From the NCBI GenBank assembly GCA_013202715.1, contig JABMRF010000040.1, forward strand, positions 4,376 to 68,375: DNA of 64,000 nucleotides. Direction: 5' to 3'. Source of the DNA: Candidatus Kuenenbacteria bacterium. Lineage in GTDB: Bacteria > Patescibacteriota > Patescibacteriia > UBA11705 > JABHMO01. The notes beneath the pieces were generated by a model, which saw nothing but the letters and a program-made list of their open reading frames with translations, made no database searches and was not told the DNA's origin. This document shows positions 1 through 60,801 of this stretch, piece by piece. Position numbers and translations under genes: made by a program. Position 1 is the stretch's first letter. Every line of letters begins with the position of its first letter.

Positions 1-1213
1 CCTGAGCGCTCAGCTCGGAAAACTTCTGCTCAAGCGAATTGCCCTGAACGGTCGAATCCTTGCTACCGACATTGGAAAACTCATTGTAGAGCTCTCCGAG
101 GGTTTCGACATGAATGATCCGGTACGGATCTTCATTCGGCAGTGGGTTTTTGTCAAAGTCACCGCTCTTGATCAGCACATCCGTGGTGCTCTCGATCACT
201 TCCACGAGCATTTCATTTGACACTTCATTTGGCGCAGATACGCCGAGCCACTGCAGGCAGTTGTCCGAAAGCGTCTGCCACTTCACGCCCTGAACCATTT
301 TTTCCACTTGGGCCTTGGTCAGACCGGTCTCCTTGACCAGCTCCTGGACCAATTCCACCGGGTTGTCCCGGTAGTACTTCAGTGAGCGGAAATAATTGGA
401 CAGGTACTTTTTCGTAAGCGCTTGATTTTCGTTGTACCACTTGATATTCACAACCAGGATATCAACGATATAGCGCTCAGTCTGCTCAGTTCCCAGAATT
501 TTGACGATACCTGGAGTTGAAAGCGCCCTCGAAACCTCAGGTTCCCAGAGAACTGCAACATCCACGGTGCCAGCCAAAAGCTTTTTCAGCGCATCTTCGG
601 ACCCGTCAGTTTCTACGCGAAACCTACCCGGAGCCGGAAGAAGTTCCGGTACATTGAAGTGATCCTTGGCCAACTTCAGCAAGTGATGACTTGGCGAATA
701 CGGAGTAAATCCGACCACCACGTCTTTGCCCTGGAAATCATTGAAGCTTTTGCCAACTTTTTCCAGAGCAACAATTGCATCTCCGCCCTTCGACTCATCA
801 ATGACCATGAAGATGAGGCCAGGAAAATCGTGCACAGCGGCATTGAGAACATACGAATCCACGGTCGCGACGACCATGTCGAATTCTCCGTCTGCCAGCT
901 TTTGCATTCGCACTTTGTAGTCAAGCTCTTCCACGACAGTGATCTTGCAACCAGAATTCTTCATTTTCTTTCTCTGAACATCAGAGAAGAGAATGTAATA
1001 TCCCGGCCAGGGATCCACTGCCATGACGATTTCGTCCGTTATATCTTTCGCCGCACTTGTATTTACCTTCTCCTGCTCTTCGGCAGCTTCTTCTGCCTGC
1101 GCTGCCAGCTCTTCCTGCTCAGTAGTATGATCAGAGAACAGCCTATAGGCACCAAAAGCAAGGAGCAAGACAACGACAATCGCGCCTAATGCAATCCCTT
1201 GGCGTTTGCTCAT
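1..1213 (-). CDS. membrane-anchored periplasmic substrate-binding protein, NMT1/SsuA-like (ABC-type nitrate/sulfonate/bicarbonate family); N-terminus in window, C-terminus beyond window start
   Basis: ATG at 1213 preceded by AGGAGG 7 nt upstream; manual translation MSKRQGIALGAIVVVLLLAFGAYRL (TM anchor) then ...AVDPWPGYYILF...GGDAIVALEKV... SBP-like motifs; open to position 1 (not in ORF track because there is no stop inside the window). Confidence 0.6.
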   Translation of the reverse strand, partial: MSKRQGIALGAIVVVLLLAFGAYRLFSDHTTEQEELAAQAEEAAEEQEKVNTSAAKDITDEIVMAVDPWPGYYILFSDVQRKKMKNSGCKITVVEELDYKVRMQKLADGEFDMVVATVDSYVLNAAVHDFPGLIFMVIDESKGGDAIVALEKVGKSFNDFQGKDVVVGFTPYSPSHHLLKLAKDHFNVPELLPAPGRFRVETDGSEDALKKLLAGTVDVAVLWEPEVSRALSTPGIVKILGTEQTERYIVDILVVNIKWYNENQALTKKYLSNYFRSLKYYRDNPVELVQELVKETGLTKAQVEKMVQGVKWQTLSDNCLQWLGVSAPNEVSNEMLVEVIESTTDVLIKSGDFDKNPLPNEDPYRIIHVETLGELYNEFSNVGSKDSTVQGNSLEQKFSELSAQ

Positions 1214-1281
1214 CCGTACCTCCTTTGTTTTTGAGCGGTTAAAAAAGGGGCAAGAGCAATTGTCCTGCCCCCTTGATGTAC

Positions 1282-2088
1282 CTATTCCTCGAAATCCATG
1301 ACTTGGAAATCTTCGGATTCAGCCAAAACGCCCTTCAAGGCGCTTGCGAGCTCAGCCGGGTCGCCAGCTTCACGATAAACCAGGTCTTCCCGATTCAGAG
1401 TGTGCTGACCACCAATACAGAATCCAATCGTGTAGACCACAATCGGGGTATTGTCGGCAATGAATGAGACATGGGTGGCAAGTGGACCTACATGGTCTGC
1501 AGCACCATCGGTAACGATGACCATCGTGTACTCACCATAACCAAGCTGTCTTTCAGCCTGCGCCGTCAGTTCAGCATAGGCGCCGGCAACAGCCTCAGTC
1601 AGAGGCGTACCTCCCTCCGGGGTCATGCTGTTTGCGTGGTCCAAAAACATTTGCCTGTTTCTGGTTCCCAAAGGAACCAATACTGAATACTTGTCGTTAG
1701 TGAAAACAGGGAACTTTATCAAGCCAAGATTGGCGTCATCCGGAACGTGCTTCACAAATTCCGCCAAGGCGACCTTGCCCGCATCGGACTTGGTATTTCC
1801 TCCAGAACATTTCGACTGCTCCATACTGCCGGAATTGTCCATGACCACGATGTAATTCTTGGTCAGGATGTTTTCCGCAACGTTGTCATCGGCAAGTCTG
1901 GGTGGCCAGACGAATTCCACGTCTTCCGCGGCTGACTCATCTCCACCGGCCCGCTCTACAGCGGCCTGCTTCTTCAGCTGATGCTCCTTGGCCCCGGGAA
2001 TCTTCTCCGGAACTGGATCCTTGCAACCGAGTGCGAAGAAAAAAATGAATACTGCAAAAATTGTGATGATCTTTTTCATGGTATTCAC
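1282..2088 (-). CDS. von Willebrand factor A (vWA) domain lipoprotein
   Basis: signal peptide plus lipobox FFALGC; MIDAS motif VVMDNSGSM (DxSxS); GAGGTGA RBS. Confidence 0.7.
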   Translation of the reverse strand: MNTMKKIITIFAVFIFFFALGCKDPVPEKIPGAKEHQLKKQAAVERAGGDESAAEDVEFVWPPRLADDNVAENILTKNYIVVMDNSGSMEQSKCSGGNTKSDAGKVALAEFVKHVPDDANLGLIKFPVFTNDKYSVLVPLGTRNRQMFLDHANSMTPEGGTPLTEAVAGAYAELTAQAERQLGYGEYTMVIVTDGAADHVGPLATHVSFIADNTPIVVYTIGFCIGGQHTLNREDLVYREAGDPAELASALKGVLAESEDFQVMDFEE

Positions 2089-2094
2089 CTCTCC

Positions 2095-3810
2095 CTACAG
2101 CAGTTCGAATTCAGAAGCTTCGGTTTCCACCTGAATGATCCTGAACTCGACCTTCATGTTGCTGAGCCACTCCTGCTCGCTCTTCGGAGCGCAGGGATGC
2201 GCACCGCACATGCCGCCGGCCGACTTCTCAAAGCCGTGGCCAACCACAGTGAACTGCGACTTGTCGAGCGTAATCCCCTTGGATGCTGCGTAGGCAACAA
2301 TGCTGTTGCGTACCGCATTTCCACGAGTCACACTCAGGTTTCTTGCGCCCTGCCGAATCTGCTTCAGCTTGGATGCCGGAGCACCGGCCTTCTTGGCCTT
2401 CAGGTAACCGAGCGGATCCGAGTGGCCTTCGACCACCATCACCGCGCCACCGAACGTTGACATCACATCGATTGCTTTGTCATATTCGGAAGCATACATG
2501 TTTGCCGTGAAATCGTTCTTGTTCGACTTGAAGAAAATCTTCAGCGTCGGAAAAATCTGCCCTGAAGACAGAGTTCCCTGACGCTGCTTTTGCGTTACGA
2601 CCGCAGCCAGCTTTTTCTCGTCATACTTCGGAGACTCGGCATGGTACTGCAGCTTTCCGCCGGAACGCATCACGGCATAGTCCCACTCAGCGTGCATCAG
2701 CGGGTAGGTCTTGTTCATCAGACCGAGCTCGGTAAACGCGGTCTGGATTTCGGCATTGACGTTCTGAAAGCTCCTCGCCTCGCTGGACTTGGTGAAAAAG
2801 GTTTCACTGTAAGCCAGCATGGCCGGGGTGCAGTCGAAGTACATGCCCTCAGAGTCGGCGAACGCCGCCGGATCCTCGATGATGTACTTGGCAAAAAATT
2901 TCACCGTTGCATTGTAAGTTTTCTTGTCCTTGTCCTTTCCATCGAAAACCTTGGCCATTGCTTCCTGCGCCTGAATGACGCCCTTGGCAAGCTCGAACAT
3001 CGCTGCCTTGTGAGCATTGAAATAATCGGACCGTACGACAAAGACATCGAAGATGACCTTGTCACCCGACTTGGTAGTCATCAGGATACGCGCACCCTTG
3101 CGAGTGCATTCCTGCATTTTGCACACCGTATCGGTGCCACCACCGGCCGCGCGAAGCGCGTCGGGGATGATCATGAAGGCCACATCGATCGACTTGTCCT
3201 TCTCGAATGCATCTGCCGGCGAATTTGTTCCGTACAGGTTGTCCTGCCAGACAAGAGTAACATCCTTGAATGAGAGGCCGACCGTTTTCAGAACTCGCCA
3301 CAGGAAATACAGGTGCGGACCATAGGCCTGAATGGCAATCCTCTTGCCATTCAGGTCTGCCGCGGTTTTGATACCTTCACGTACGACAATTGCGTCACCG
3401 CCCGTCGAACGGGTCAGGAGACCGGCAATCACCGGCTGAGTTCGCGGATCCTTGGCCATGATCGGCAGAGCCGCATTGACCATTCCGAGAGTTCCACGGA
3501 AGGTCGGGTTCTTGCCGGACATGTAGTCGTTCAGCATCTGCTGCGGATTGTTCTGCAGCTTGATGTTGAAACACAGGCCCAGCTTGTCGAAAATCGACCC
3601 CTTTGCGGTTCGCAGAGCATTGCCGTTACCGAAGGTAAAGGCATACTCCCCGCCCCAGGAAATCACGTGCAGGTCAATGCAACTGTTGTCAGTCACATTG
3701 CCCACCGGCGAATCCTTGAACGGCTTGAGCATCTGAGCGTTGGCAACGCCAGACCACATGAAACAAACTGCGAAAACGACTACGAGAATCTTGGCGGTGA
3801 AAGTCCTCAT
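2095..3810 (-). CDS. secreted NMT1/SsuA-like substrate-binding domain fused to C-terminal OmpA-like peptidoglycan-binding domain
   Basis: signal peptide ...GVANAQ; GGDAIVVREGI motif shared with the CDS at 1-1213; C-terminal VVEGHSDPLGYL...NLSVTRGNAVRNSIVAY resembles OmpA/MotB C-domain; AGGAGG RBS. Confidence 0.65.
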   Translation of the reverse strand: MRTFTAKILVVVFAVCFMWSGVANAQMLKPFKDSPVGNVTDNSCIDLHVISWGGEYAFTFGNGNALRTAKGSIFDKLGLCFNIKLQNNPQQMLNDYMSGKNPTFRGTLGMVNAALPIMAKDPRTQPVIAGLLTRSTGGDAIVVREGIKTAADLNGKRIAIQAYGPHLYFLWRVLKTVGLSFKDVTLVWQDNLYGTNSPADAFEKDKSIDVAFMIIPDALRAAGGGTDTVCKMQECTRKGARILMTTKSGDKVIFDVFVVRSDYFNAHKAAMFELAKGVIQAQEAMAKVFDGKDKDKKTYNATVKFFAKYIIEDPAAFADSEGMYFDCTPAMLAYSETFFTKSSEARSFQNVNAEIQTAFTELGLMNKTYPLMHAEWDYAVMRSGGKLQYHAESPKYDEKKLAAVVTQKQRQGTLSSGQIFPTLKIFFKSNKNDFTANMYASEYDKAIDVMSTFGGAVMVVEGHSDPLGYLKAKKAGAPASKLKQIRQGARNLSVTRGNAVRNSIVAYAASKGITLDKSQFTVVGHGFEKSAGGMCGAHPCAPKSEQEWLSNMKVEFRIIQVETEASEFELL

Positions 3811-4081
3811 TTTTTCCTCCTAAAGGATTGAGTTAATGGACCACCGTACTACGGAACAGGACACCGAAAAAATAACTATTAAAAAAAAGAAACAGCAAAC
3901 TTAATCTGCTCTTTTTCCTCCTTCCATATACAAATTGTCAAAAAACACAAATGAAACAATCTTAATACAAATTTAATATTTTGTCAAGTTTTTTATGTAA
4001 CTTTTTGCAAAAAAAAGCAAGCCAATTTTTCTTGACTTAATTTACTACACATAACAACACAAATACTATTTTTACGCAAGT

Positions 4082-4117
4082 AAAAAAGAACATTGAGTTC
4101 AATGTTCTTTTTTTTGA
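4082..4117. terminator. bidirectional rho-independent terminator
   Basis: A-run, 11-bp stem aagaacattga/tcaatgttctt, T8 run. Confidence 0.7.
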
Positions 4118-4119
4118 AA

Positions 4120-5532
4120 TTACCGTTGGAACGGCCGGCAAACCTTTGCTTTCGCGCCATAGAAACTCAATCTAAACCTCTGGACAACCTTTCTTCCAGT
4201 TCCGCCAAAGGCGTCAGGCATATTCCCAAGATCGACCTTCTCTCCCATCCTGTCTGCTACCATATTTTCCTGTAACCAAAGTTTGTATTGTTCTGCTCTG
4301 CTCAACTTGTCACTTTCAAACCTTTCAAATACTCCATTAATCACACCTTGGATTGCTCCACTGATACGATCATCCAGAGCAGTCATCGTTTGGCCAATCT
4401 TGCCGGGAACACGTCCCAGCATAACCATCACAATCATGATTCCCAGAACTGCCAGAAGAGGAGAAAGGACCCACAGTAAAGCGCTGAGCATCCACCAAAG
4501 CTCTCCAGCCAAGACCAGCTTGAACAGATAGTACGCACCTACCAAAAATACGACGACACTCAAAACTTCGATTGGTGCAACACGGAGATATTTATCAGCC
4601 TCACCTTCTTTTTTACCTCGTTTCCAAAGCAAAAATTCAGGAGTACTGTCCAAGCAAACACTCCACTCTTTTTCATCTCGCTCATGCATAAAACCAAGAT
4701 ACATTTCTCTGAGCACAGGTCGCGGTCGAAAACCGCAAAACGCTGTTGCAATACTGGCCAGCAAGACATAGAGCGAGTGGAATGTGCCACCAATCAAATA
4801 GACAATGATCAAGTACCCCAGCCCCACAAACGGCTTCAGGGAATAAGCGAGCATCTTCCTCTGGCGATACACGCACTCATCGCGCGGATTTCCTGGATGC
4901 AACCAGTTTGCCCAGTCCCAAAGACGACTGGCAAACTTCGTCTTTGGCCTCTGGGCAAAAAGCTCCGTTGGCACTTCAAATTCCATCACCTTGCATGCCA
5001 GTGCGCGACCATCAAAATCGGACAAATCGCCTTCCTCAAGATTTGAAAATGAAATAGAATTTGAGCTACGTGAAAAATGATCATCACGCAGGAGATTCTC
5101 CATAAAACGTTTCGAACATCTCTTTCCATCCAGCGCAACAACTGCCAACCGGTGGTAGCCGGGTGAAAATACCTGCATGAAATGAACGACTTGCTTCAGG
5201 TCATAGAGGCTTCGCCGACCCATTGTCATTGAATGATAAACATTTTCTGTTTCGTCCTTCGTTTGTTCAATGACCAAAATATGAGTCGGAGTGTTGTCCT
5301 CATCCATCAGCCACTGCTCATCAAACCCAACCTTGATAGGAACGGTGGCGCTGTCCATCTCATTGGTACCGCCATTGAGCACAACTTTCATAGCTGAAAG
5401 CGCCACCTCACGCCGCAACTCTTCTTCCTGCCTTTCACGTTCTTCCTGCGCTTCACGTTCTTCCTGCGCTTCACGCTCCACACGCTCATTTTCCAATTGC
5501 TCAGCTGATTTCTTGGTTTTTTTCTTTGACAT
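4120..5532 (-). CDS. hypothetical protein: acidic repeat-containing N-terminal domain plus C-terminal multi-TM region
   Basis: long ORF; GGAGGAG RBS before second ATG (MSKKKTKK); 18-nt tandem DNA repeat encoding REAQEE x3; several hydrophobic helices; GC higher than genome. Confidence 0.55.
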   Translation of the reverse strand: MSKKKTKKSAEQLENERVEREAQEEREAQEERERQEEELRREVALSAMKVVLNGGTNEMDSATVPIKVGFDEQWLMDEDNTPTHILVIEQTKDETENVYHSMTMGRRSLYDLKQVVHFMQVFSPGYHRLAVVALDGKRCSKRFMENLLRDDHFSRSSNSISFSNLEEGDLSDFDGRALACKVMEFEVPTELFAQRPKTKFASRLWDWANWLHPGNPRDECVYRQRKMLAYSLKPFVGLGYLIIVYLIGGTFHSLYVLLASIATAFCGFRPRPVLREMYLGFMHERDEKEWSVCLDSTPEFLLWKRGKKEGEADKYLRVAPIEVLSVVVFLVGAYYLFKLVLAGELWWMLSALLWVLSPLLAVLGIMIVMVMLGRVPGKIGQTMTALDDRISGAIQGVINGVFERFESDKLSRAEQYKLWLQENMVADRMGEKVDLGNMPDAFGGTGRKVVQRFRLSFYGAKAKVCRPFQR

Positions 5533-5750
5533 TTGCTCCTCCATGTTGAGCGAAAAAGTTTAACGAAGTCAACCCAATACTTATCTAATTGTAAGGTTCA
5601 GAACTAACATATCATGATAACAAACTTTTTTCAATTTGTCAACCTTCGAGAACCCTTCGATAAACTCAGGACAGGCCTCAGGTTGACACAAAAAATACTT
5701 ATTTTACGCAAAAAGAAAGGATTTCACTCCCCTCTTTTTATATAATTTGC

Positions 5751-7604
5751 TTATTCTAAAATAGCTTTAATCCTTCTCACACCTGCTGAGCTGGATTCTT
5801 CTTTTTTGATTCGGAACTTACCAAGCTCTCCAGTTTTTTGGGCATGCGGTCCGCCACACATTTCACAAGACACGTTTCCAATTGTGAAAACTTTTGCAAC
5901 GTGACCATACTTGTCTTCAAACAATCCAATTGCTCCTTTTTTCTTCGCATCATCAACTGCCATTTCCGCACAGCCAACTTCAAGATCATCTTTGATCCAA
6001 CCATTAACTAATTCTTCAACTTCTTTTTTTTGTTCGTCAGTCATTTTATCTAGATGTGTAAAATCAAATCGCAATCGGTCAGCGGTAATATTGCTACCCT
6101 TTTGCAGTGCATGAGGGCCAAGAACTTTTTGTAATGCGGCCTGGAGTAAGTGAGTTGCTGTGTGAAGTTTACAAGTTTCTTCCGATGCGTCAGCCAGTCC
6201 GCCTTTGAATCTTTGACCAGCGCCTTCTCGCGAAAGAGCCTGATGTTTTTCAAACTCAGCATCAAATTCTTTTTTGTCAAATTTAATTCCTTTTTCTTCT
6301 GCCAACTCTTCGGTCATTTCATATGGAAAACCATAAGTTGAAAACAAATCAAACGCTTCAGTTCCGGAAATATTATTGTCCTTGGACATTTTTTTGAACT
6401 CACGCAATCCTTTTTCCAGAGTTGTGGCAAATTTTTCTTCTTCTTTTGTTAATTGTTTCAAAATAAAATCTTTATTCTTCTTGAGTTCAGGATAAGTGTC
6501 CTGCATTATTTTAATAACAACTTCGGCAACCTTGTGAGTAAACACGCCTTCAATTCCAATTTGCTTGCCGTGCCTGATTGCTCTTCTAATTAAACGTCGC
6601 AAAATATATCCCTGGTCAACATTTGACGGTTCAATCCCCTTTTCATCACCAAGAATAAAAGTGGCAGCGCGAACGTGATCTACTATTACTCGAATTGATT
6701 TTTTTTCTTTTTCATAATTTGGATCATCTTTTTTTCCGTAAATGTCTGTATTGTCTACTCCTTCTTGACCAAGATATTTATATTTTCGGAGCATGTTAAC
6801 TTCTGCCACAATCGGTTCAATGTGCGGGCAATGATAATTATCAGGAAAGTCATTCAAAACTGAAACTGTTCTTTCCAATCCCATACCCGTATCCACGTTC
6901 CTCTGCTTCGCTTTTACATATTCATATTCTACTTTATCTGATTGGCTCTTGACTTTTGACTCTTGACTCTTGACTTTATTATATTCCATAAATACGTCGT
7001 TCCAAATCTCAACGTATTTACCACAACTGCAACTTGGCTGGCAGTCTTTGCCGCAAGCTTTTTTATCGGAAATATAAAACATTTCTGAGTCCGGTCCGCA
7101 TGGTCCTGTTTTTCCAGCCGGGCCCCACCAGTTTTCTTTTTTATTATATTTATAAATACGATCCTCGGGCATGCCAAGAGATTTCCAAGTATTGTAACTT
7201 TCTTCGTCAAAGGGAGCATCGTCGTCACCTTTAAAAACGGTCACAGCCAATCTGTCCAAAGGAATATCCAAAACATTTGTTAAAAATTCATAGCTCATTT
7301 CAATTGCTTCTTTCTTCCAGTAGTCGCCAAGTGACCAATTGCCCAGCATTTCAAAACAAGTAAAATGCCATTGATCTCCGACATCATCAATATCGCCAGT
7401 TCGAATACATTTTTGGAAATCAACCAATCGCGTTCCGGCTGGATGCTTTTCGCCCAATAAATATGGGACAAGAGGATGCATTCCGGCAGTTGTAAAAAGA
7501 CAGGTTGGATCATTTTCTGGAATCAAAGAAGCAGAAGGGATTATGGCGTGGCCCTTGTCTTTGAAAAAATTTAGGAATTTTTCACGAAGTTCGTGTGCGT
7601 GCAT
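5751..7604 (-). CDS. alaS: alanyl-tRNA synthetase (short form with catalytic and editing domains, no C-Ala domain)
   Basis: N-terminal class II AlaRS motifs (FTTAGMHPLVPY, WHFTCFEML), editing HxxxH...CGGPH; 617 aa. Confidence 0.85.
   Translation of the reverse strand: MHAHELREKFLNFFKDKGHAIIPSASLIPENDPTCLFTTAGMHPLVPYLLGEKHPAGTRLVDFQKCIRTGDIDDVGDQWHFTCFEMLGNWSLGDYWKKEAIEMSYEFLTNVLDIPLDRLAVTVFKGDDDAPFDEESYNTWKSLGMPEDRIYKYNKKENWWGPAGKTGPCGPDSEMFYISDKKACGKDCQPSCSCGKYVEIWNDVFMEYNKVKSQESKVKSQSDKVEYEYVKAKQRNVDTGMGLERTVSVLNDFPDNYHCPHIEPIVAEVNMLRKYKYLGQEGVDNTDIYGKKDDPNYEKEKKSIRVIVDHVRAATFILGDEKGIEPSNVDQGYILRRLIRRAIRHGKQIGIEGVFTHKVAEVVIKIMQDTYPELKKNKDFILKQLTKEEEKFATTLEKGLREFKKMSKDNNISGTEAFDLFSTYGFPYEMTEELAEEKGIKFDKKEFDAEFEKHQALSREGAGQRFKGGLADASEETCKLHTATHLLQAALQKVLGPHALQKGSNITADRLRFDFTHLDKMTDEQKKEVEELVNGWIKDDLEVGCAEMAVDDAKKKGAIGLFEDKYGHVAKVFTIGNVSCEMCGGPHAQKTGELGKFRIKKEESSSAGVRRIKAILE
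6946..6976. repeat. AGTCNNN heptamer tandem array inside alaS (in-frame, encodes KSQESKVKSQ-like insertion)
   Basis: ctcttgacttttgactcttgactcttgactt seen directly. Confidence 0.8.
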
Positions 7605-7611
7605 AGAGTTA

Positions 7612-7688
7612 AGTCTTGAGTCTAGAGTCTAGAGTCAATAGTCGGTAAAATAACTCTAGACTTTTGACTCTTGACTTTTGACTTGTAG
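7612..7688. repeat. two inverted arrays of AGTCNNN/TCTAGAC-type heptamers upstream of alaS
   Basis: agtcttgagtctagagtctagagtcaatagtc ... ctctagacttttgactcttgacttttgacttg. Confidence 0.8.
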
Positions 7689-7775
7689 TTTATGCTTCCA
7701 TAATAACCAAATTTAACCGAATTTGCAACCTCAATATTAACATTTATGTAAATTGAGACCAGAACCCAACAGCCA

Positions 7776-7804
7776 TTGACAAAATTCGAAAAGTATGCTA
7801 TAAT
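7776..7804 (+). promoter_or_regulatory. sigma70-type promoter TTGACA-17-tgcTATAAT
   Basis: TTGACA at 7776-7781, 17-nt spacer, extended -10 tgcTATAAT 7796-7804. Confidence 0.7.
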
Positions 7805-7858
7805 GGTAAAATTGAGAAGTTCGTTTTCGTGACACATAAATCCAAAAAGGAGAGCGCA

Positions 7859-8218
7859 ATGAGTACCTACGAAAATCGCCTGGCAAAGGCAAAAGTCGAA
7901 GCAGAACAAACGGCGAGGGAAAAGGCTAGCAAGGAAGCATCCCAACTCGCCAACGCCGCAAGGTGTGGTATCCACAGCGACATTTATGAGGATAAATACG
8001 AAGATACCTTCGAGATCGTCTACAGAGATGAGATGATGACGTTCGAAGTCAACGAGATGGACAGCGAACCCGACATTCCGGAAGACGAAGACAATCCTCA
8101 TCTTGAAGAGCCGGAATTGATGGACGACCTCCTCTATGATCTCGATCGTCTTGATGAGGAGTACGAGGAGATGGAAGCACGCATCAGCGCCGAGGACCCC
8201 ATTTTCGACACAGCCTAA
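7859..8218 (+). CDS. highly acidic hypothetical protein (120 aa)
   Basis: AGGAG RBS before ATG 7859; Asp/Glu-rich C-terminal half; GC about 50%; consensus promoter upstream and terminator downstream. Confidence 0.6.
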   Translation: MSTYENRLAKAKVEAEQTAREKASKEASQLANAARCGIHSDIYEDKYEDTFEIVYRDEMMTFEVNEMDSEPDIPEDEDNPHLEEPELMDDLLYDLDRLDEEYEEMEARISAEDPIFDTA

Positions 8219-8287
8219 AACGACGCCTCCACGAACAAGACCTCGACGCCATGTGACTCGAGAGTCAACAACACTAAACCCCAAGCC

Positions 8288-8322
8288 CCCACCATCCGAA
8301 ATCGGATGGTGGGAATTTTTTT
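8288..8322 (+). terminator. rho-independent terminator
   Basis: cccaccatccga-aat-cggatggtggg followed by aattttttt. Confidence 0.75.
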
Positions 8323-8447
8323 AAATATTTTCTATTTTTGATTTTGACTGTGGTTTTACATTTTTCATTTTGCATTATCACTTGACATATCCTCACAAAA
8401 CATCTAAACTAATTTAATACATTGTTAATCAGACAAGGAGGATAATA

Positions 8448-8822
8448 ATGCGAGATAATCAATACGACAAAGACGCTATTGAAAAAGCGGCGGAGTTTAT
8501 TCACAAAATTGCCAGAAAAGAAGCAAGAATGGGAACAAAAAGGTATCAGGGAATCTACCTGGATCTTTACTGGCCGGCCTACACTGCTGCCTGCAAAGGC
8601 GATGATGAATGGATGCAGTTTTGTGCAATACTTGAAGAGCACGGCCCAGACGCGGAGCTCCCGAAGTATGAACCGCCTATTACACAAAACGAAATTGCCT
8701 GGCAGGAACTGGTTGCCATCTTGCGCTCTGGGATAACACAAGGAATTTTTGCCGGCGTAATCGGAACGGCTTTCCTCATTGTTATTGTTAAGAAACTGAT
8801 CAGACAACTGAAAAAGAACTAA
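8448..8822 (+). CDS. hypothetical protein with C-terminal TM helix
   Basis: AGGAGG RBS (caaggaggataataATG); terminator immediately downstream. Confidence 0.55.
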   Translation: MRDNQYDKDAIEKAAEFIHKIARKEARMGTKRYQGIYLDLYWPAYTAACKGDDEWMQFCAILEEHGPDAELPKYEPPITQNEIAWQELVAILRSGITQGIFAGVIGTAFLIVIVKKLIRQLKKN

Positions 8823-8834
8823 AGAAAAATAAAG

Positions 8835-8868
8835 GAACGAATCATTGTAATTCGTTCCGTTTTTTTTA
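8835..8868. terminator. bidirectional terminator
   Basis: ggaacgaat-cattgta-attcgttcc plus T8. Confidence 0.7.
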
Positions 8869-13770: not shown

Positions 13771-14965
13771 ATGAAATTTCATACATTGGTAAAATAATTG
13801 AAATAATCATTGCGCCAACAGCTACACCAAGAATAATCATAATAAATGGTTCCAATAATGCCATTAAGTTTGCAATCAAATTATTTGCTTCGCGGGTATA
13901 GAACTCACTAACCTTTTCAAGTACCTCCTTTACTTTTCCTGTATTCTCGCCAGTTTCTAGCATTTGAGAAAGCATTTTCGGAGCATATTTACTTTTACTG
14001 AAAACTAACCCCAGTTCTCCACCGTCTTTTACAACGTTCACCGTTTCCAAAATTAAATCTTCATAAACTGTATTGCTCATCATCCCAGAGCTTATTTCCA
14101 AAGCCTCTACCATATCCACGCCACCAATAAGTAATGTTCTAAAACTTCGAGAGAATCTGATTACTGCGGTATAATTAATTAATTTTCCAAAAACCGGTAA
14201 TTTTAAGGCCACTTTGTCAATTACTCTTTTTCCCGCCGACGATTCATTAACTTTATAAACAACAAAGCCAAAAACTGCAACCACAATAATTAACACCCAC
14301 CAATATCCAATCAGAAAATCACTCGTTCCAATCAACATTCGAGTTGTAAAGGGTAGTTTCGCTCCAGTTTGAGTTAGCATTTCCGTTAATTTCGGTACCA
14401 CGAAAATCATCATCAAGACACCCACCACTACCAACCCGCAAATCACAAATACCGGATAAATCATGGCTCCTTTTATTTTTGCCCGTAAATCATAATCTTT
14501 TTCCAGCTGATCTGCCAAATATACTAAAACTTCCTGAAGGCGTCCGGAAACTTCCCCTGATTTGATTATATTAATAAAAAAGCCGTCAAAAACTTTTGGA
14601 AAATGTGCCAGAGCTTCAGAAAACTTAACCCCACCCTCCACTTCACTGGCAACTTCAGCAATGGTTTTTTTTAATTTTGGGTTATTTGTCTGCCCTACTG
14701 CGTCTTTCAATGCCTCAACTACTGGGACTTCAGCAGAAATTAAAATAGAGAGTTGGCGAGAAAAAATCACCAAGTCTTTAATCTTTACCCGGTCAAAACT
14801 AATTTCTAGAGCAGCTAGGCCGGTTTTCTTTTGTTCCAATGAAAGGACAATATATCCTTTGTCTTCAAGAATATCAACCGCCAAACTTTCACTTTCTGCC
14901 TCAACCACTCCCTCCAACATTTCATCGTTTTCGGTTGTTTTCGCGCGATAATTATATAAACTCAT
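13760..14965 (-). CDS. pilC: type IV pilus assembly platform protein PilC (GspF family)
   Basis: polytopic membrane protein with two T2SSF-like repeats. Confidence 0.85.
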   Translation of the reverse strand: MSLYNYRAKTTENDEMLEGVVEAESESLAVDILEDKGYIVLSLEQKKTGLAALEISFDRVKIKDLVIFSRQLSILISAEVPVVEALKDAVGQTNNPKLKKTIAEVASEVEGGVKFSEALAHFPKVFDGFFINIIKSGEVSGRLQEVLVYLADQLEKDYDLRAKIKGAMIYPVFVICGLVVVGVLMMIFVVPKLTEMLTQTGAKLPFTTRMLIGTSDFLIGYWWVLIIVVAVFGFVVYKVNESSAGKRVIDKVALKLPVFGKLINYTAVIRFSRSFRTLLIGGVDMVEALEISSGMMSNTVYEDLILETVNVVKDGGELGLVFSKSKYAPKMLSQMLETGENTGKVKEVLEKVSEFYTREANNLIANLMALLEPFIMIILGVAVGAMIISIILPMYEISSNM

Positions 14966-14971
14966 ATTGCT

Positions 14972-16732
14972 TTACTCTTGCTCCTCAACTTCTTTACTGA
15001 CTCTGAATATTTCTTCAAGCGAAGTAAATCCTTGTAGTGATTTGATAATTCCATCCTGTAATAGACTAATCATCCCGATTCTTTTTAGCTCTTCGAGAAC
15101 TTCAGGTTTTTTAAACCCGTTGGAAATTATAATTCTCATTTTTTCTGTAATTGGCAACACTTCGGAAATTACAATTCGTCCACTGTAGCCTGTGTTCTTA
15201 CATATTGCACAACCTTTTCCCCGATATGCTTTTAATTGACCTGTTAAATCAATTTCTTTGGGTAATTTCTTCGGATCGACTTTTTGCAATTCTCTTTTTA
15301 CCTTTTCTGCAACGTCATTTGGTAAATCGTAACTTTCTTTACACTTGGAACAAATACGACGACCCAGGCGTTGTGCAATTATTAAATTCAAGGTTGAAGC
15401 AAGGAGAAAAGGCTCCACCTTCATATCCATCAAACGTGGCACAGCACCAATTGAATCATTGGTATGCAAAGTTGAAAATAATAAATGTCCGGTGAGTGCA
15501 GCATGCACGCCCATCTCGCCAGTTTCATGATCACGAATCTCTCCGACCATAATAATATCCGGATCCTGTCTCATCAAAGCGCGAAGTCCGGCTGCAAAAG
15601 TAAACTTAACTTCAGGCCTGACCTGAGCCTGATTAATTCCAGGAATATTATATTCCACCGGGTCTTCCAGTGTGCTAATATTGATCCCTTCTTTGTTCAT
15701 GCTACTCAAAATTGAAAATAAAGTAGTAGACTTACCCGAACCTGTCGGCCCGGTAACTAAAATCATGCCGTAAGTCTGCTTCAACGCTGTGGCAATTACA
15801 TCTCTCAGCTCCTTGCTAAAGCCCAGTTGCTCAAGTGTCAAAGCTTTACTACCAGTATCTAAAATACGAATGGTGATTTTTTCTTTTCCCGCCAAAGGCA
15901 TCACTGAAATACGCAAATCATAATCTTGTTTTCCAATATGAATTTTTGATCTGCCATCCTGCGGAACCCGAGTTTCATCAATTTTTAAATTTGATAAAAC
16001 TTTAATCCTGGAAATTACTGAATCATGAATATAGGACGGTAATGTTAAAACTGTATTTAAAATGCCGTCTATTCGAAAACGAACCCGCGAACTTTTTTCA
16101 AAAGGTTCAATGTGAATATCGGAAGCCCGGCTTTCAACCCCGTGCTTGATAATCATGGAAACTATCTGAGCTACCGGCGCACTTTTGATAACCTCCTCAA
16201 TATTATCAGTAGAAATATCTTCTTCTAATTTTTTTTCTTCCTGATCTTTTTCAACCTCACCGAGAGCAGTTGCCACGTCGTCTCCAAAGGCGCCGTAACG
16301 CTTTAGTGCTTCTTGCCAGGCATATATTGAACAAAGATAATATTCAACTGAAAATCCTTTGCTGGAAGCCCAAAAATCAATTGCTTCTCGGGCATCATAA
16401 TCTTCCGGTTTAGCTATAGCAATCTTTAGTTTTTGGCCCTGTTGGTCAAAACAAATTGCACTGTGTTGCTCAGCTAAATTCAGGGGCATTATTTCCTGAA
16501 TATCCGGATTTACTTTGCGCTGCATCAAATTTTCATAAGGATAATTAAAAAACTCTGCCTCAAACTGAGCCAACTTTTCTGCATCAACAAATCCTCCTTT
16601 TATTAGGATGTCTCTTAGACTTTTCTCTTCGGAGCTCTTTAGGATATTTTTAACTTCCTCAACCTGCTTCTCTCTGAGTGCTCCCTTTTGTAACAAAAAG
16701 CCCAATAATTTTTTATGTTGTTCTTTTATCAT
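14972..16732 (-). CDS. pilB: type IV pilus assembly ATPase PilB (GspE family)
   Basis: Walker A GPTGSGKSTT, CxxC tetracysteine, GspE signature; ORF-track start at 16744 is TTG, ATG at 16732. Confidence 0.9.
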   Translation of the reverse strand: MIKEQHKKLLGFLLQKGALREKQVEEVKNILKSSEEKSLRDILIKGGFVDAEKLAQFEAEFFNYPYENLMQRKVNPDIQEIMPLNLAEQHSAICFDQQGQKLKIAIAKPEDYDAREAIDFWASSKGFSVEYYLCSIYAWQEALKRYGAFGDDVATALGEVEKDQEEKKLEEDISTDNIEEVIKSAPVAQIVSMIIKHGVESRASDIHIEPFEKSSRVRFRIDGILNTVLTLPSYIHDSVISRIKVLSNLKIDETRVPQDGRSKIHIGKQDYDLRISVMPLAGKEKITIRILDTGSKALTLEQLGFSKELRDVIATALKQTYGMILVTGPTGSGKSTTLFSILSSMNKEGINISTLEDPVEYNIPGINQAQVRPEVKFTFAAGLRALMRQDPDIIMVGEIRDHETGEMGVHAALTGHLLFSTLHTNDSIGAVPRLMDMKVEPFLLASTLNLIIAQRLGRRICSKCKESYDLPNDVAEKVKRELQKVDPKKLPKEIDLTGQLKAYRGKGCAICKNTGYSGRIVISEVLPITEKMRIIISNGFKKPEVLEELKRIGMISLLQDGIIKSLQGFTSLEEIFRVSKEVEEQE

Positions 16733-23782: not shown

Positions 23783-23829
23783 ACTTTTAACTTTTACATT
23801 TTACATTTTACCTTTTACCTTTTACCTTC
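23783..23829. repeat. GGTAAAA-family heptamer tandem array (7 units) spanning the recJ stop and rnhA start
   Basis: cttttaacttttacattttacattttaccttttaccttttacc. Confidence 0.85.
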
Positions 23830-30954: not shown

Positions 30955-30983
30955 TTGACAGGCTTATTACACCATGCTATATT
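30955..30983 (+). promoter_or_regulatory. sigma70-type promoter TTGACA-17-tgcTATATT
   Basis: TTGACA 30955-30960, extended -10 at 30975-30983. Confidence 0.65.
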
Positions 30984-31093
30984 GAACAGTTATCCGCTAA
31001 TTTAACAATCCTTTTTCTCTCTATTGAATAACAAAAACAAAGCCCTTCTTCGCTCTGTACTTACTCAGAGCTTCGAAGGACAAGGAGGAAAGC

Positions 31094-31492
31094 ATGCTGA
31101 AGTACTGTCTTGGTGGAATTGGATTTTTGTTCTTTGTTCTCATCGTTTCAGCAAAAGCCCAGGTTTTTCTGGAACAACTGATTGACCTGCCCAACGTTCT
31201 CGAATTCGGAATTTGTGCAATCCCTCTCGTCGCAATTCTCGTTTCCATGATCCATGATGTGGTCAATAGAACCAAGGGCTTTAAGAACGCTTCCCTGTCA
31301 ACTCTTGCGGGAATCGGTGTACTGTTCTTTTTCATGATGGTTGCAAATAACGGAGCAAACTTCATGGATATTCTGGCCAAGCTCTCACCTTTTGAACAAG
31401 GGACAATCGTTGCTATTCCGATTCTTGCCCTTGTCGCATCCACTGTCGTGGATATTGCATTGCCAAGAAAAACAAAAAAGGCCTCAAGCTAG
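31094..31492 (+). CDS. small multi-TM membrane protein (132 aa)
   Basis: AGGAGG RBS, promoter, terminator; four hydrophobic helices. Confidence 0.6.
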   Translation: MLKYCLGGIGFLFFVLIVSAKAQVFLEQLIDLPNVLEFGICAIPLVAILVSMIHDVVNRTKGFKNASLSTLAGIGVLFFFMMVANNGANFMDILAKLSPFEQGTIVAIPILALVASTVVDIALPRKTKKASS

Positions 31493-31502
31493 TCTCAACA
31501 AA

Positions 31503-31535
31503 AACCCCAGCCCTCTTCGGCCGGGGTTTTTCAAT
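31503..31535. terminator. bidirectional terminator
   Basis: ccccagccc-tcttc-ggccgggg plus T5. Confidence 0.65.
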
Positions 31536-46388: not shown

Positions 46389-46432
46389 GTAATTGGGTAA
46401 TTGGGTAATTGGGTAATTGGGTAATTGGTAGT
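46389..46432. repeat. GGGTAATT octamer tandem array (5 units)
   Basis: gtaattgggtaattgggtaattgggtaattgggtaattgg. Confidence 0.9.
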
Positions 46433-49103: not shown

Positions 49104-49253
49104 ATTTGTTATTGTATCTTACTTTTAAAATCCAAAATAAGCAAATTACTTATACACTTATATTATACACTATTTATTAGTAAGTTGTAAGCTAAAAGGG
49201 AAAAGTTAAAAGCAACAAAAAAAACCCCTAATTTTACGGGAATAGACTCACCA

Positions 49254-49282
49254 TTGACTTTTCGCAGAAAGTATGCTATAAT
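49254..49282 (+). promoter_or_regulatory. consensus promoter TTGACT-17-tgcTATAAT
   Basis: TTGACT 49254-49259, TATAAT 49277-49282 with TGn. Confidence 0.7.
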
Positions 49283-49308
49283 ACTATGAACATTAAATGG
49301 AGGAAACC

Positions 49309-49572
49309 ATGGTAGATGCAATTGCAAGCCTTTGCATTTCACTCGGACTGATGCTGCTCCTGCTCCACGCAATCTGTTACATGGCCGGAGCAAAAAAGTT
49401 CGTGCCGAACATGATCAAAGGCTTCTTTCGGAGCCTCGGAGACATGGCCAGCTCGACCGTCCGAGGAGGATTTGGCGTTCTTGGAGCAATTCTGAGAGAA
49501 GGCCTTTTCGCCATTGGTCGCGGCTGCAGATGGGTCGTCGTTTCTCTCTGGAACAAGGCTCTCGGGCGATGA
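49309..49572 (+). CDS. small hydrophobic protein (88 aa), GC-rich
   Basis: GGAGG RBS before ATG 49309; hydrophobic N-terminal segment; terminator downstream. Confidence 0.55.
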   Translation: MVDAIASLCISLGLMLLLLHAICYMAGAKKFVPNMIKGFFRSLGDMASSTVRGGFGVLGAILREGLFAIGRGCRWVVVSLWNKALGR

Positions 49573-49591
49573 ACAAAAACATTCCAACTGG

Positions 49592-49625
49592 CACCGCTAT
49601 CTTATATAGCGGTGTCTTCTCTTTA
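49592..49625 (+). terminator. rho-independent terminator
   Basis: caccgctat-ctt-atagcggtg then U-rich tail. Confidence 0.6.
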
Positions 49626-52470: not shown

Positions 52471-52503
52471 CCTTAAATACTTTTAACTTTTACATTTTAC
52501 CTT
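52471..52503. repeat. GGTAAAA-family heptamer array immediately upstream of cysS
   Basis: cttttaacttttacattttaccttttaacttt. Confidence 0.8.
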
Positions 52504-52579
52504 TTAACTTTATTTTTCGCAAGCCCCACCTTTCAACTCCGCTACGCTTCGCTCAAGACGTTACTTTTTCCTTTTATTT

Positions 52580-54369: not shown

Positions 54370-54409
54370 ATCCGCGTCAATCCGCGTTAGATCCGCGTTT
54401 ATCCGCGTT
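54368..54409. repeat. ATCCGCG-family tandem repeats (copy d): four units at 10-11 bp period between convergent genes
   Basis: ttatccgcgtcaatccgcgttagatccgcgtttatccgcgtt. Confidence 0.9.
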
Positions 54410-55504
54410 CTATTCAAAATCCTCTAAAAGTTTCCTCTGCTTCCGACTAAGTTTTTTCGGCACCGCCACTTCAATAACAACATACATATCGCCTCGAGTG
54501 GAACCGTGAAGCTGCGGCATGCCTTTTCCTTTCAACCTAAACTTGGTCCCGGGCTGAGTTCCTGCTGGAATTTTCAAACTAACTTCAGATTCAAGAGTTC
54601 CCACATCAATCTCGCCACCGAGCGCAGCCTCAACAAATGAAATATTATTCTGCATGTAAATATCTTTTCCATGACGCTGAAAAACTTTATCAGATCTAAT
54701 CCGGACACGCACATAAAGATCTCCAGCTTCGCCTCCAAATGGAGCAGCATTTCCTTTTCCGGTCAGGCGAAGGGTAGAGCCATCTTCGATTCCAGCTGGA
54801 ATTTCAATATTAATTTTTTCTTTTTTCTTGGTAACTCCCTGGCCTGAACATTTGGAACACGGGGTTTCTGCTTTTTTTCCACTACCGTGACAATCTGTGC
54901 AAGTTGAACTGCTTTGAAATGCGCCGAGCATCGTTTGCTGAACTCGAGTGACACGTCCCTGACCATTGCAGGTCGAGCAAGCATTGATAGGAGTTCCAGG
55001 TTCCGCCATATTACCGTGACAATGTTCACATTTTACAGTTTTATACAATTCAACTTCTTTTTTGATTCCATTAATAACATCTTTTAATCCAATTTCAAAA
55101 TCAACCTGAATATCTTCGCCACCGCCTCGGCTTCGCCCATTTCTTCCACCGCCAAAACCAAACATGTCGCCAAATATATCGCCAAGGTCAAGTCCGCCGA
55201 AGTCAAACTTTGCTCCGTTTGCACCGCCACCTCCGCCTCTAGCTTGGCTCATAAAATCGCTCCAGTTCATCCCCCCACCAAATCCACCCATTTGGTCAAA
55301 TGAAGATCCAAACTGGTCATACTGTTTTCGTTTTTCCGGCTTGCCAAGGACCTGGTAGGCCTCATTAATTTCTTTAAACTTAGCTTCATCACCAGTTTCT
55401 TTGTCAGGATGGTACTTATGAGCCAGTTTACGAAAAGCACGCTTGATCTCGTCTTGATCAGCGCCTTTTTCTACGTTTAATATTTTATAATAATCTTTAG
55501 ACAT
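54410..55504 (-). CDS. dnaJ: chaperone DnaJ
   Basis: J-domain HPD (KYHPDK), G/F-rich region, four CxxCxGxG zinc-finger repeats. Confidence 0.9.
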   Translation of the reverse strand: MSKDYYKILNVEKGADQDEIKRAFRKLAHKYHPDKETGDEAKFKEINEAYQVLGKPEKRKQYDQFGSSFDQMGGFGGGMNWSDFMSQARGGGGGANGAKFDFGGLDLGDIFGDMFGFGGGRNGRSRGGGEDIQVDFEIGLKDVINGIKKEVELYKTVKCEHCHGNMAEPGTPINACSTCNGQGRVTRVQQTMLGAFQSSSTCTDCHGSGKKAETPCSKCSGQGVTKKKEKINIEIPAGIEDGSTLRLTGKGNAAPFGGEAGDLYVRVRIRSDKVFQRHGKDIYMQNNISFVEAALGGEIDVGTLESEVSLKIPAGTQPGTKFRLKGKGMPQLHGSTRGDMYVVIEVAVPKKLSRKQRKLLEDFE

Positions 55505-55557
55505 AAGGGAAATAAGGCGGAATAAGGCGAAAGAGGATAACTCTCGACTTCCTGTTA

Positions 55558-55983: not shown

Positions 55984-56079
55984 AAATGAATACTGATGAT
56001 ACTGATATACTGATTAAGAGAAATTTGATTTAGGATAACAATAAATTACGTAAAATTAGCAAAAACCGTTACCAACCTA

Positions 56080-56108
56080 TTGACTTTTATTTAAATATAT
56101 GCTATAAT
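56080..56108 (+). promoter_or_regulatory. consensus promoter TTGACT-17-tgcTATAAT
   Basis: TTGACT 56080-56085, TATAAT 56103-56108 with TGn. Confidence 0.7.
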
Positions 56109-56153: not shown

Positions 56154-56217
56154 GGCAGCTATGCCAGGGACGTATGTGCCCATAATAGCAAAGGACAAAA
56201 CATGAATCTGATCAACA
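56154..56217 (+). repeat. duplicated 5' block, copy 1 (leader plus first codons MNLINK)
   Basis: ggcagctatgccagggacgtatgtgcccataatagcaaaggac...ATGaatctgatca identical to 56539-56602. Confidence 0.9.
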
Positions 56218-56456
56218 AGGCCTGGAACGTGACCGTGACCTACAACACCAAGCTGGCAATCAGCTGGGGCGTTTTCGCCCTGTTCCTCATCTGTGCCTCG
56301 ATCTGCATCCCGCCTGCGATCGCTCTGATCGAGGAGGGAGTGTATCACTCGAGGAGCTTCGTCACCGAAACGGTATTCGCCTACACCGCCACGGCGGGGT
56401 TGGTCAGCACCTTCGCCGATTGGCGCTACAAGCTCATCTTCTTCAATCGCAGCTAG
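56202..56456 (+). CDS. small 2-TM membrane protein (84 aa), GC-rich
   Basis: ATG 56202 after AAGGA; two hydrophobic helices; GC about 58%. Confidence 0.55.
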   Translation: MNLINKAWNVTVTYNTKLAISWGVFALFLICASICIPPAIALIEEGVYHSRSFVTETVFAYTATAGLVSTFADWRYKLIFFNRS

Positions 56457-56538: not shown

Positions 56539-56602
56539 GGCAGCTATGCCAGGGACGTATGTGCCCATAATAGCAAAGGACCAAAAATGAATCTGATCAG
56601 CA
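56539..56602 (+). repeat. duplicated 5' block, copy 2 (leader plus first codons MNLISK)
   Basis: 43-nt perfect identity to copy 1 plus identical first 13 coding nt. Confidence 0.9.
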
Positions 56603-57156: not shown

Positions 57157-57185
57157 GCCCACACTTGGGCATACTTCAGACATCA

Positions 57186-57225
57186 AAGGGCTCAACCTTA
57201 TCTCAGGTTGGGCTCTTTTTCTTTT
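57186..57225. terminator. bidirectional terminator (for the 56587 gene and dnaK)
   Basis: gggctcaacct-tatctc-aggttgggct then ctttttcttttt. Confidence 0.6.
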
Positions 57226-60740: not shown

Positions 60741-60763
60741 GTTTTTTAGAATAAAAAAAGACG

Positions 60764-60792
60764 CGATTTCGTAGTTACGAAATCGCGTTGTG
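60764..60792 (-). terminator. rho-independent terminator
   Basis: 13-bp stem acgcgatttcgta/tacgaaatcgcgt then T-run on minus strand. Confidence 0.75.
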
Positions 60793-60801
60793 TTGTTTTC
60801 T

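Follow-up and report, generated by a model that had tools for sequence, protein, structure and literature searches.

Probable autonomous accessory-gene cassettes with consensus-like promoters at housekeeping operon boundaries of a Candidatus Kuenenbacteria chromosome

Introduction

Phage morons, such as gene 15 of HK97, are independent units that carry their own promoter and terminator, differ in GC content from their surroundings and are found as extra DNA between genes that adjoin each other in related genomes; they often encode a small membrane or exclusion protein (PMC3594210). A second described case is that of putative mobile promoters, in which similar promoters stand before unrelated genes of one genome (Matus-Garcia et al., 2012), the criterion being at least 80% identity over 50-100 nt upstream (PMC3488235). 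Here we analysed a stretch of 64,000 nucleotides (64 kb; hereafter the window) from a Candidatus Kuenenbacteria bacterium (assembly GCA_013202715.1, contig JABMRF010000040.1, positions 4,376 to 68,375 of the forward strand), in which an initial annotation had pointed to three near-identical consensus promoters before small GC-rich genes, one of them encoding a strongly acidic protein. Our analysis suggests that these promoters and genes probably form part of a set of autonomous accessory-gene cassettes in the chromosome, and that their promoters would look alike through a general consensus.

Bacteria of the Candidate Phyla Radiation (CPR) are uncultured episymbionts with tiny genomes, in which a large share of the genes is of unknown function. 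A literature search for mapped promoters or transcription starts in CPR bacteria or Saccharibacteria returned nothing relevant. A -16 TRTG motif together with an extended -10 region is a feature of Gram-positive primary-sigma promoters, the TRTG motif having reportedly been described in Bacillus subtilis promoters by Voskuil and Chambliss in 1998.

Results and discussion

An exact scan for TTGACW-N17-TATAAT gave four matches in the window against 0.04 expected, a number that was reached in none of 100 shuffles. Three of them, all on the plus strand, are the promoters proposed initially, at 7776-7804 (site 1), 49254-49282 (site 2) and 56080-56108 (site 3), and their description as TTGAC(A/T)-17-TATAAT with a TGn extension agrees with the scan; the fourth, at 62299-62271 on the minus strand (site 4), had been missed. 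Site 1 (TTGACA) matches the consensus hexamers at 12/12 positions and sites 2-4 (TTGACT) at 11/12, with a spacer of 17 bp throughout and TGn before the -10 at all four. The TATGcTATAAT of sites 1-3 fits TRTG; at site 4 the corresponding stretch is AGTGc (GTGc directly before its -10). The string ATGCTATAAT occurs exactly three times (0.14 expected) and aaagtatgcTATAAT is common to sites 1 and 2, while the string (a)tgcTATAATa that all three promoters had been said to share does not extend to site 1, which reads TATAATg. At each of the four sites a Shine-Dalgarno (SD) sequence read from the sequence (AGGAG, GGAGGA, AAGGA and GGAGGA, respectively) lies 5-9 nt before the ATG, and there follow one or two open reading frames (ORFs) and a predicted intrinsic terminator made up of a hairpin and a T-run.

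The site 1 unit contains the acidic gene: AGGAG at 7848-7852 (+), 6 nt before the ATG, the coding sequence of a 119-amino-acid (aa) orphan at 7859-8218 (+; GC 0.50, GC3, the GC content of third codon positions, 0.60) and a predicted terminator at 8288-8322 (+; hairpin and T-run at 8288-8313), whose 11-bp stem has eight GC pairs before the T-run. At site 2, the GGAGGA at 49299-49304 (+) precedes a gene at 49309-49572 (+; GC 0.54, GC3 0.58) for an 87-aa basic small membrane protein, called B87 below, with an intrinsic terminator at 49590-49616 (+). The expectation that each promoter drives one small GC-rich plus-strand gene is correct as to the GC-rich ORFs and too narrow for site 3, which drives two: 56202-56456 (+; GC3 0.86), whose 84-aa product has two segments that look hydrophobic by eye, and 56587-57156 (+; GC3 0.70), for an orphan putative lipoprotein of 189 aa with the lipobox AITG/C (by eye). 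The single-sequence AlphaFold2 (AF2) model of the latter is unreliable, with a predicted local distance difference test score (pLDDT) of 46.8. An 81-nt direct repeat, 90% identical between its copies at 56154-56234 (+; leader and first 11 codons) and 56539-56619 (+), marks a local duplication linking the two ORFs, and a terminator hairpin at 57185-57218 (+) separates the lipoprotein gene from the 3' end of the convergent dnaK. The site 4 unit (60761-62223, minus strand, GC 0.47-0.49) consists of the genes for a 326-aa protein with an N-terminal membrane anchor (62223-61243, -) and a 132-aa protein with an N-terminal anchor and a Cys-rich region bearing a weak MopE-like motif (61200-60802, -), followed by a terminator at 60788-60761 (-).

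Three further units have a promoter, a gene and a terminator of their own. Next to the acidic gene, a separate unit at 8382-8858 (+) has the promoter TTGACA-17-TAAACT (8382-8410, +), then the SD sequence AAGGAGGA, a coding sequence for a 124-aa orphan with a C-terminal transmembrane helix (8448-8822, +) and a bidirectional terminator (8834-8858). Adjoining site 4, the unit at 62415-62847 (-) has the promoter TTGACG-17-TATACT (62827-62799, -), a gene for a 96-aa hydrophobic protein with an N-terminal anchor judged by eye (62751-62461, -) and a terminator (62441-62415, -). The third, a fifth cassette of like build at 30955-31531 (+), has the promoter TTGACA-17-TATATT (cATGCTATATT; +), again followed by AAGGAGGA, and encodes a 132-aa protein with about four hydrophobic segments by eye (31094-31492, +; GC3 0.47) before a terminator at about 31505-31531 (+). 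Judged by eye, most cassette products would be envelope proteins, either membrane-anchored or of the lipoprotein type.

A strong promoter, a GC-rich body and a terminator are also the typical layout of non-coding RNA (ncRNA) genes in AT-rich genomes, and the GC-rich segments might be structured ncRNA genes in which the ORFs are incidental. We consider this extremely improbable: no match in the window reaches the Rfam gathering threshold, the only hits of two cassette regions at E <=1 are two chance matches to miRNA families, far below gathering and located on a hairpin upstream of alaS, and the leaders fold no better than shuffled sequences (z 0.5-0.8). Moreover, every ORF starts 5-9 nt after an SD sequence and fills its transcript, the GC content of the codon positions is asymmetric (in the acidic gene, GC2 is 0.30 against 0.61 for GC1 and 0.60 for GC3), and the products have hydrophobic-helix and lipobox features.

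The cassettes lie at boundaries of housekeeping operons, and three of them are oriented against the flanking genes. The window has a GC content of 40%, its minus strand holds about four-fifths of the genes and its plus-strand GC skew is steadily negative; the genome had been described as otherwise minus-strand, which is mostly so, except that there are further plus-strand genes and that the minus strand too has GC-rich ones. The core genes are the usual CPR housekeeping set, with alaS, mnmA, dus, a yacP-like NYN gene and hrcA-grpE-dnaK-dnaJ confirmed by Pfam or synteny and the names mreB, cysS and type IV pilus genes taken from the translations only. The positions occupied by cassettes are the conserved operon junctions mnmA-alaS, dnaK-yacP-dnaJ and dus-mreB operon and the region upstream of hrcA. 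Many CPR relatives have mnmA and alaS on one strand, with mnmA upstream and 90-800 bp between the two, and any genes in the gaps we examined are unrelated, same-strand and mostly for small coiled-coil proteins. In the window this gap measures 1.7 kb and contains the acidic gene and the 124-aa gene, both antisense to the flanks, and a 96-aa gene.

For the other junctions we compared four relatives (loci L041, L042, L043 and L046) found in a metagenome scan with DnaJ, at 56-68% DnaJ identity. All four are syntenic with the window, in the order 62928-homologue/hrcA/grpE/dnaK/yacP-like/dnaJ ... cysS/dus/p173/mreB, and tblastn detects in them no homologue of any cassette protein. The cassettes that lie upstream of hrcA in the window take up about 2.2 kb, and the corresponding gap in L042 measures 144 bp. 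The dnaK-yacP and dus-p173 slots are filled in the relatives by different or diverged genes: at dnaK-yacP, L042 has a 12/12 promoter, TTGACAAATTCAACTTTCTATGATATAAT, before an antisense gene of GC 0.48 (locus 0.38) for an N-terminally anchored 236-aa orphan, and at dus-p173, L043 and L041 each have a small antisense B87-like ORF that is preceded by a consensus promoter and AAGGAGG and followed by a terminator (L041:6438-6683, -; L043:16234-16506, -). B87 and these two positional orthologues share H-x6-G-x-K-(K/Q)-x-(I/V)-P-(N/K)-(L/M)-x-K and, further on, RG, with pairwise BLASTP E values of 8e-5, 2e-4 and 2e-3, all on one segment. We therefore regard B87 as a fast-evolving family that is positionally conserved in the clade and not as a recent import. 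Separately from these comparisons, the dnaK-yacP slot of L043, which corresponds to that of site 3, holds a 121-aa ORF (7524-7889) that looks GIY-YIG nuclease-like by eye. At its dus-p173 junction, L043 carries a 2-kb island (14500-16550) of 48-53% GC. The island has a pair of paralogous orphan ORFs, of 153 and 146 aa, that are 48% identical, and the B87-like gene of L043 is immediately followed by a long poly-C run that is possibly an assembly artefact. In L044 and L045, other GC-rich orphan genes stand behind 12/12 promoters right after dnaJ.

These features allow a comparison with morons. Each cassette has its own predicted promoter and terminator, the composition differs from that of the surroundings (GC3 0.48-0.86 at sites 1-4 against 0.28-0.40 in 13 core genes), and the DNA is an extra at mnmA-alaS and at 62928-homologue-hrcA, where the gap of L042 is the 144 bp given above. 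In contrast to morons, the cassettes lie between the chromosomal genes alaS, mnmA, dnaK, dnaJ, dus and hrcA and not in a prophage, have no convincing PHROGs matches or phage or plasmid relatives and, in the case of the B87 family, are positionally conserved rather than sporadic. With three of the four moron features, they are moron-like in the way they work and are not morons.

The total GC content of the ORFs of sites 1-4 is 0.47-0.58; for the three plus-strand loci it is 0.50-0.58, with a GC3 of 0.58-0.86. Across the GC-rich ORFs, GC3 spans 0.45-0.86 and differs between cassettes, and this wide spread argues against one shared origin. The NNC/NNT and NNG/NNA ratios are both roughly twice those of the core genes, and the third-position skew tracks the local strand, with C3 > G3 in plus-strand cassettes and G3 > C3 in minus-strand ones. 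These figures fit DNA that would have evolved in genomes of higher GC content and been gained on separate occasions. The view that these are acquired genes is plausible for most cassettes and wrong or too simple for B87, given its positional orthologues in two related genomes. Loci with a GC content of 0.46-0.50 and a like promoter type do exist elsewhere (L010, L044 and L050).

The same codon usage could in principle have arisen in native, very highly expressed genes through translational selection for C-ending codons. In line with this, the plus-strand cassettes prefer NNC over NNT (0.59-0.85 compared to 0.26 in the core), their promoters are the best of all and their SD sequences are strong, and B87 is positionally conserved in the clade. 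This explanation is nevertheless improbable, because dnaK, a classic high-expression gene, has a GC3 of only 0.28. The minus-strand cassettes, moreover, are enriched in G3 and not C3, with NNG also raised over NNA, codon positions 1 and 2 and the amino-acid composition are shifted as well, and the L041 orthologue of B87 is AT-rich despite its 12/12 promoter.

Like ORFan genes and horizontally acquired islets, the cassettes are lineage-restricted, have an atypical composition and are located at permissive intergenic sites. In bacteria, orphan genes usually have a higher AT content than the genome they belong to, whereas the cassette ORFs are markedly GC-richer and have better-than-average expression signals of the host type. 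In the records, the acidic protein and its neighbours are hypothetical proteins of a Candidatus Kuenenbacteria MAG (locus tags HQ571_04295 onward; contig of 84,377 bp). When ten GC-rich proteins were looked up, eight belonged to one- or two-member clusters at 90% identity, and the other two, from the left-hand block outside the cassettes, had no exact sequence on record. None of the cassette proteins reached a curated Pfam or NCBIfam cut-off, and nothing convincing came from searches of PHROGs, PADLOC or PDB sequences. Family hints are limited to the 124-aa protein, whose C-terminal helix weakly matches DUF7940, and to the 132-aa protein of the site 4 unit with its weak MopE-like Cys motif. 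A homology search with the 189-aa lipoprotein returned only itself. Comparison of the cassette proteins near dnaJ with the dnaJ-region loci by tblastn, and of the accessory proteins among themselves by BLASTP, brought out no hidden homology apart from the B87 family, the C1/C2 N-termini and paralogue pairs within relatives. The cassettes look like strongly signalled, lineage-specific accessory genes.

The context of the cassettes is identical in four independent samples, whose contigs are 99.8-100% identical, and there is therefore no sign of present mobility. Other accounts of the cassettes as a group were tried and rejected. For a mobile element, there are no repeats flanking sites 1-3, no convincing PHROGs or PADLOC match and no phage, plasmid or viral relatives, in addition to the identical context in the four samples. 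For a prophage, neither convincing matches to phage families nor phage relatives were found, and an assembly chimera is set aside by the recurrence of the same junctions in independent samples.

The resemblance of the promoters had been taken to suggest that these loci share an origin or a regulon. To assess the first of these, five accessory promoters were compared in register over 100 nt with pairs of control promoters. Identity between accessory pairs is 33-54% (44-45% among sites 1-3), and their flanks are at background, with 0.29 identity in the upstream 50 nt and 0.31 in the downstream 21 nt compared to 0.28 and 0.30 in control pairs; only the 29-nt core is raised (0.62-0.83). Common descent is therefore unsupported for sites 1-3, and the proposal of a shared promoter origin fails, the likeness being confined to the 29-nt consensus core. 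The copying of one promoter module to several genes, by propagation or in the manner of mobile promoters, is accordingly very improbable as a general explanation and largely refuted for sites 1-3, whose identity over 100 nt is far under 80%, whose shared letters are consensus positions (-35, TRTG -16 motif and -10) and around which no flanking direct or inverted repeats were found. It can draw on the aaagtatgcTATAAT shared by sites 1 and 2 and on the promoters and leaders of site 4 and 62827-62799, which align over 51 nt at 73% (76% over the first 21 transcribed bases); this last pair looks like a local duplication. Even this pair, the best of all, falls short of what defines putative mobile promoters.

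Instead, the promoters are probably near-identical as near-perfect copies of the lineage's general consensus, and not by mutual descent: they resemble each other because each best matches the TTGAC-17-(TRTG)nTATAAT consensus of the genome. About 20 further promoter-like sites in the window fit TTGACA-16/18-TATAAT at 10-11/12 positions, nearly all with TGn, and many of them precede ordinary genes. Among these is the hrcA promoter TTGACGAGTGCTAA (60725-60697), which overlaps a CIRCE half-site and is kept in the relative L043; it is a useful positive control, since it shows housekeeping genes of the clade using the predicted type of promoter. The corresponding promoter of L043 (3414-3442) has a CIRCE-like TTAGCACTC-N9-GAGTGCTAA spanning the -35, of which only the right half is intact in the window, and that of L042 is at position 1815. 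The window promoters thus have the -35 TTGACA/T, the 17-bp spacer and the TATGnTATAAT of primary-sigma (sigma-70/sigma-A) promoters, from which they differ by an extra upstream 10-mer at some sites.

This 10-mer, GTAAAATTAG, emerged from the alignment of the promoter regions. It occurs exactly three times in the 64 kb against 0.32 expected (0/100 shuffles reached three), and each copy is found a short distance before the -35 of an accessory promoter: inverted at 49228-49237 (-), 17-26 nt upstream of the -35 of site 2; at 56050-56059 (+), starting 30 nt before that of site 3; and at 62847-62838 (-), upstream of the 62827 promoter. In the 60 nt upstream of 20 promoters, dinucleotide-preserving shuffles predict 0.007 regions with the element where three were found, a figure inflated by the choice of GTAAAATTAG after inspection of the data. 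Analogous promoters in L041, L042 and L043 have AAAWTTAG 15-26 nt upstream of the -35, as CAAAATTAGC, CTAAATTTAGC or CTAAATTTAGT, and k-mer enumeration finds the element in 5/8 accessory compared to 1/18 control promoters. Sites 1 and 4 have one-mismatch copies only, and such copies are not enriched (17 found, 16 expected). We see moderate evidence that GTAAAATTAG is a genuine cis-element at some promoters, that of the acidic gene excluded; it could be a factor site or be UP-like.

It is possible, though doubtful, that several cassettes form a true regulon, controlled by a factor binding the near-palindromic (G/C)TAAAWTTAG(C) upstream of the -35. The two enrichments, the counterparts in the three relatives and the bias towards accessory promoters all speak for such a regulon. 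Set against them are the post hoc choice of the motif, the inconsistent distance and orientation of the element, the lack of an exact copy at sites 1 and 4, the possibility that an A/T-rich element is UP-like rather than a factor site, and the fact that no candidate regulator was identified. The regulon half of the initial suggestion may thus apply to sites 2 and 3 and a third accessory promoter, and less readily to site 1 with its single one-mismatch copy. A bolder scheme, to which we give a small chance, is that Kuenenbacteria-like CPR bacteria have dedicated, co-regulated cassettes (perfect promoter, (G/C)TAAAWTTAG operator, GC-shifted orphan and terminator) at fixed inter-operon hot-spots, the contents of which would be replaced between lineages while slot and signals persist. 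If true, this hot-spot system would be a source of surface or host-interaction proteins that evolve fast, alongside an acidic inhibitor in the cytoplasm, possibly a DNA mimic.

The acidic character of the 7859-8218 product is confirmed: it has 38 D/E and 11 K/R in 119 aa, an isoelectric point of 4.05 and a net charge of -27. The acidic part is the C-terminal two-thirds (33 D/E and 4 K/R in residues 41-119), the first 40 residues being slightly basic and predicted to form a helix. A search of 5.8 billion clustered proteins found the protein itself and nothing else. To this a full HMMER scan of 1.84 billion representatives added one low-complexity coiled-coil match and no homologue, and collections of viral contigs, phage genomes and plasmids yielded no relatives either. 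Presence or absence in sister lineages was judged from these negative homology searches; at the alaS locus, the best alanyl-tRNA synthetase (AlaRS) in species-representative genomes is 63% identical.

This protein had been proposed as a DNA mimic or anti-restriction protein of the Ocr/ArdA type, which would be strongly expressed and act against restriction enzymes or another DNA-binding protein. It is, like these, small, standalone and extremely acidic, and its length and charge are almost those of Ocr (116 aa; 34 acidic and 6 basic residues; PMC3439906); DNA mimics are described as so divergent in sequence that missing homology is expected (PMC3902945), and the predicted strong promoter before a standalone gene would suit the role. 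The structural comparison that had been suggested gave no support, however, as the single-sequence AF2 model (helix 3-35, hairpin 50-63 and helices 87-112) is unreliable and too poor to judge the fold (pLDDT 65.7; predicted template modelling score, pTM, 0.21), and the best Foldseek match to the PDB is noise (E 5.8), with no Ocr or ArdA. Nor was there any Ocr/ArdA family match in Pfam, PHROGs, PADLOC, NCBIfam (at curated cut-offs) or PDB sequences. The first 40 or so residues, in contrast to Ocr/ArdA, are not acidic, and the gene, instead of being on a phage, plasmid or conjugative element or in a leading region, is in a chromosomal housekeeping context between alaS and mnmA, with no mobile element or restriction-modification system adjoining. 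Acidity by itself is also compatible with immunity proteins, antitoxins, chaperone-like proteins and disordered tails. The DNA-mimic proposal, which we consider unlikely, is thus left unsupported rather than refuted, composition being its only evidence, with no link to a family, fold, phage, plasmid or mobile element. Our best guess is a cytoplasmic, partly disordered protein that binds and blocks a basic, possibly nucleic-acid-binding, partner, a role of which DNA mimicry would be one form.

Several points weigh against the account of these loci as accessory cassettes with constitutive consensus promoters. The exact 10-mer at three accessory promoters suggests specific regulation on top of the constitutive consensus, and the strength and use of the promoters are predictions made from sequence. 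The C/G skew of the cassettes, which follows the local strand, hints at long residence, and the downstream GC content of the B87 family is 0.37 in L041, 0.53 in the window and 0.66 in L043, in genomes of 0.37-0.40 GC, a range that simple one-off horizontal transfer does not explain. No donor homologues were found for the cassette genes, for which a foreign origin is putative. The assignment of products to the envelope relies on composition and on hydrophobic and lipobox motifs judged by eye, and the binding role suggested for the acidic protein on composition. Xenologous replacement from GC-richer CPR relatives would reconcile the GC range of B87 with the strand skew.

We nevertheless think it probable that the loci are autonomous accessory-gene cassettes, each composed of a near-perfect housekeeping-sigma promoter (-35 TTGAC, 17 bp, TRTGnTATAAT), an SD sequence, a short ORF or two with an elevated GC content and an intrinsic terminator. 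In such a cassette, RNA polymerase with the primary sigma factor would start about 7 nt past the -10, giving a short mono- or bicistronic mRNA, and transcription would halt at the hairpin before entering the convergent operon. The membrane-anchored and lipoprotein-type products would most plausibly act in surface or host interaction, or in exclusion, in an episymbiotic CPR cell. The analysis demonstrates the signals in the sequence, the composition, the interruption of synteny, the consensus character of the promoters and, for the proteins searched, their orphan status; that the genes are transcribed, how strongly, where their products reside, what these do and whether the genes are foreign are inferences. 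Strong consensus promoters on lineage-specific accessory genes are already well known, and the finding is unsurprising in kind. The window does yield an internally consistent promoter model, TTGAC-17-TRTGnTATAAT, for a lineage without mapped starts. Orphan and mostly envelope-targeted genes with the strongest predicted expression signals are sensible targets for the study of host interaction, and the presence of different or diverged GC-shifted cassettes at the same junctions in relatives may inform the understanding of gene gain in streamlined genomes.

Some other features of the window were noted in passing. Its left end (1-5544) is a bigger GC-rich block, of GC 0.45-0.53, comprising a putative lipoprotein with a VWA domain (1282-2088), a 571-aa secreted protein (2095-3810; GC3 0.69) with a weak NMT1/substrate-binding-like match, named ABC transporter substrate-binding protein by NCBI, and a 474-aa orphan (4120-5544) preceded by the promoter TTGACA-17-TATCAT with TGn at 5642-5614. 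The heptamer GACTYTT/TTGACTC is repeated in and near alaS, at window positions 6942-6975 and 7604-7684. Within the coding sequence, a tandem repeat of about five copies encodes a 13-aa insertion, VKSQESKVKSQSD, that is missing in seven related AlaRS proteins; two more arrays of the heptamer form an inverted pair immediately before the start codon. Many housekeeping genes of the minus strand have tandem repeats of short period (7-10 nt) at their 5' ends or close to them (23784-23828, 52479-52511, 59942-59978, 46389-46428, 54370-54409, 55503-55532, 55990-56014 and others). Several of them read (GNNAAAA)n in the sense of the gene, such as the (GGTAAAA)n that precedes the 23360-23770 gene and is also found within the grpE N-terminus, and a perfect (GTAATTGG)x5 array lies immediately upstream of the promoter-like site at 46380. 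Phase-variable elements or elements of the 5' untranslated region are possibilities for these repeats at housekeeping 5' ends.

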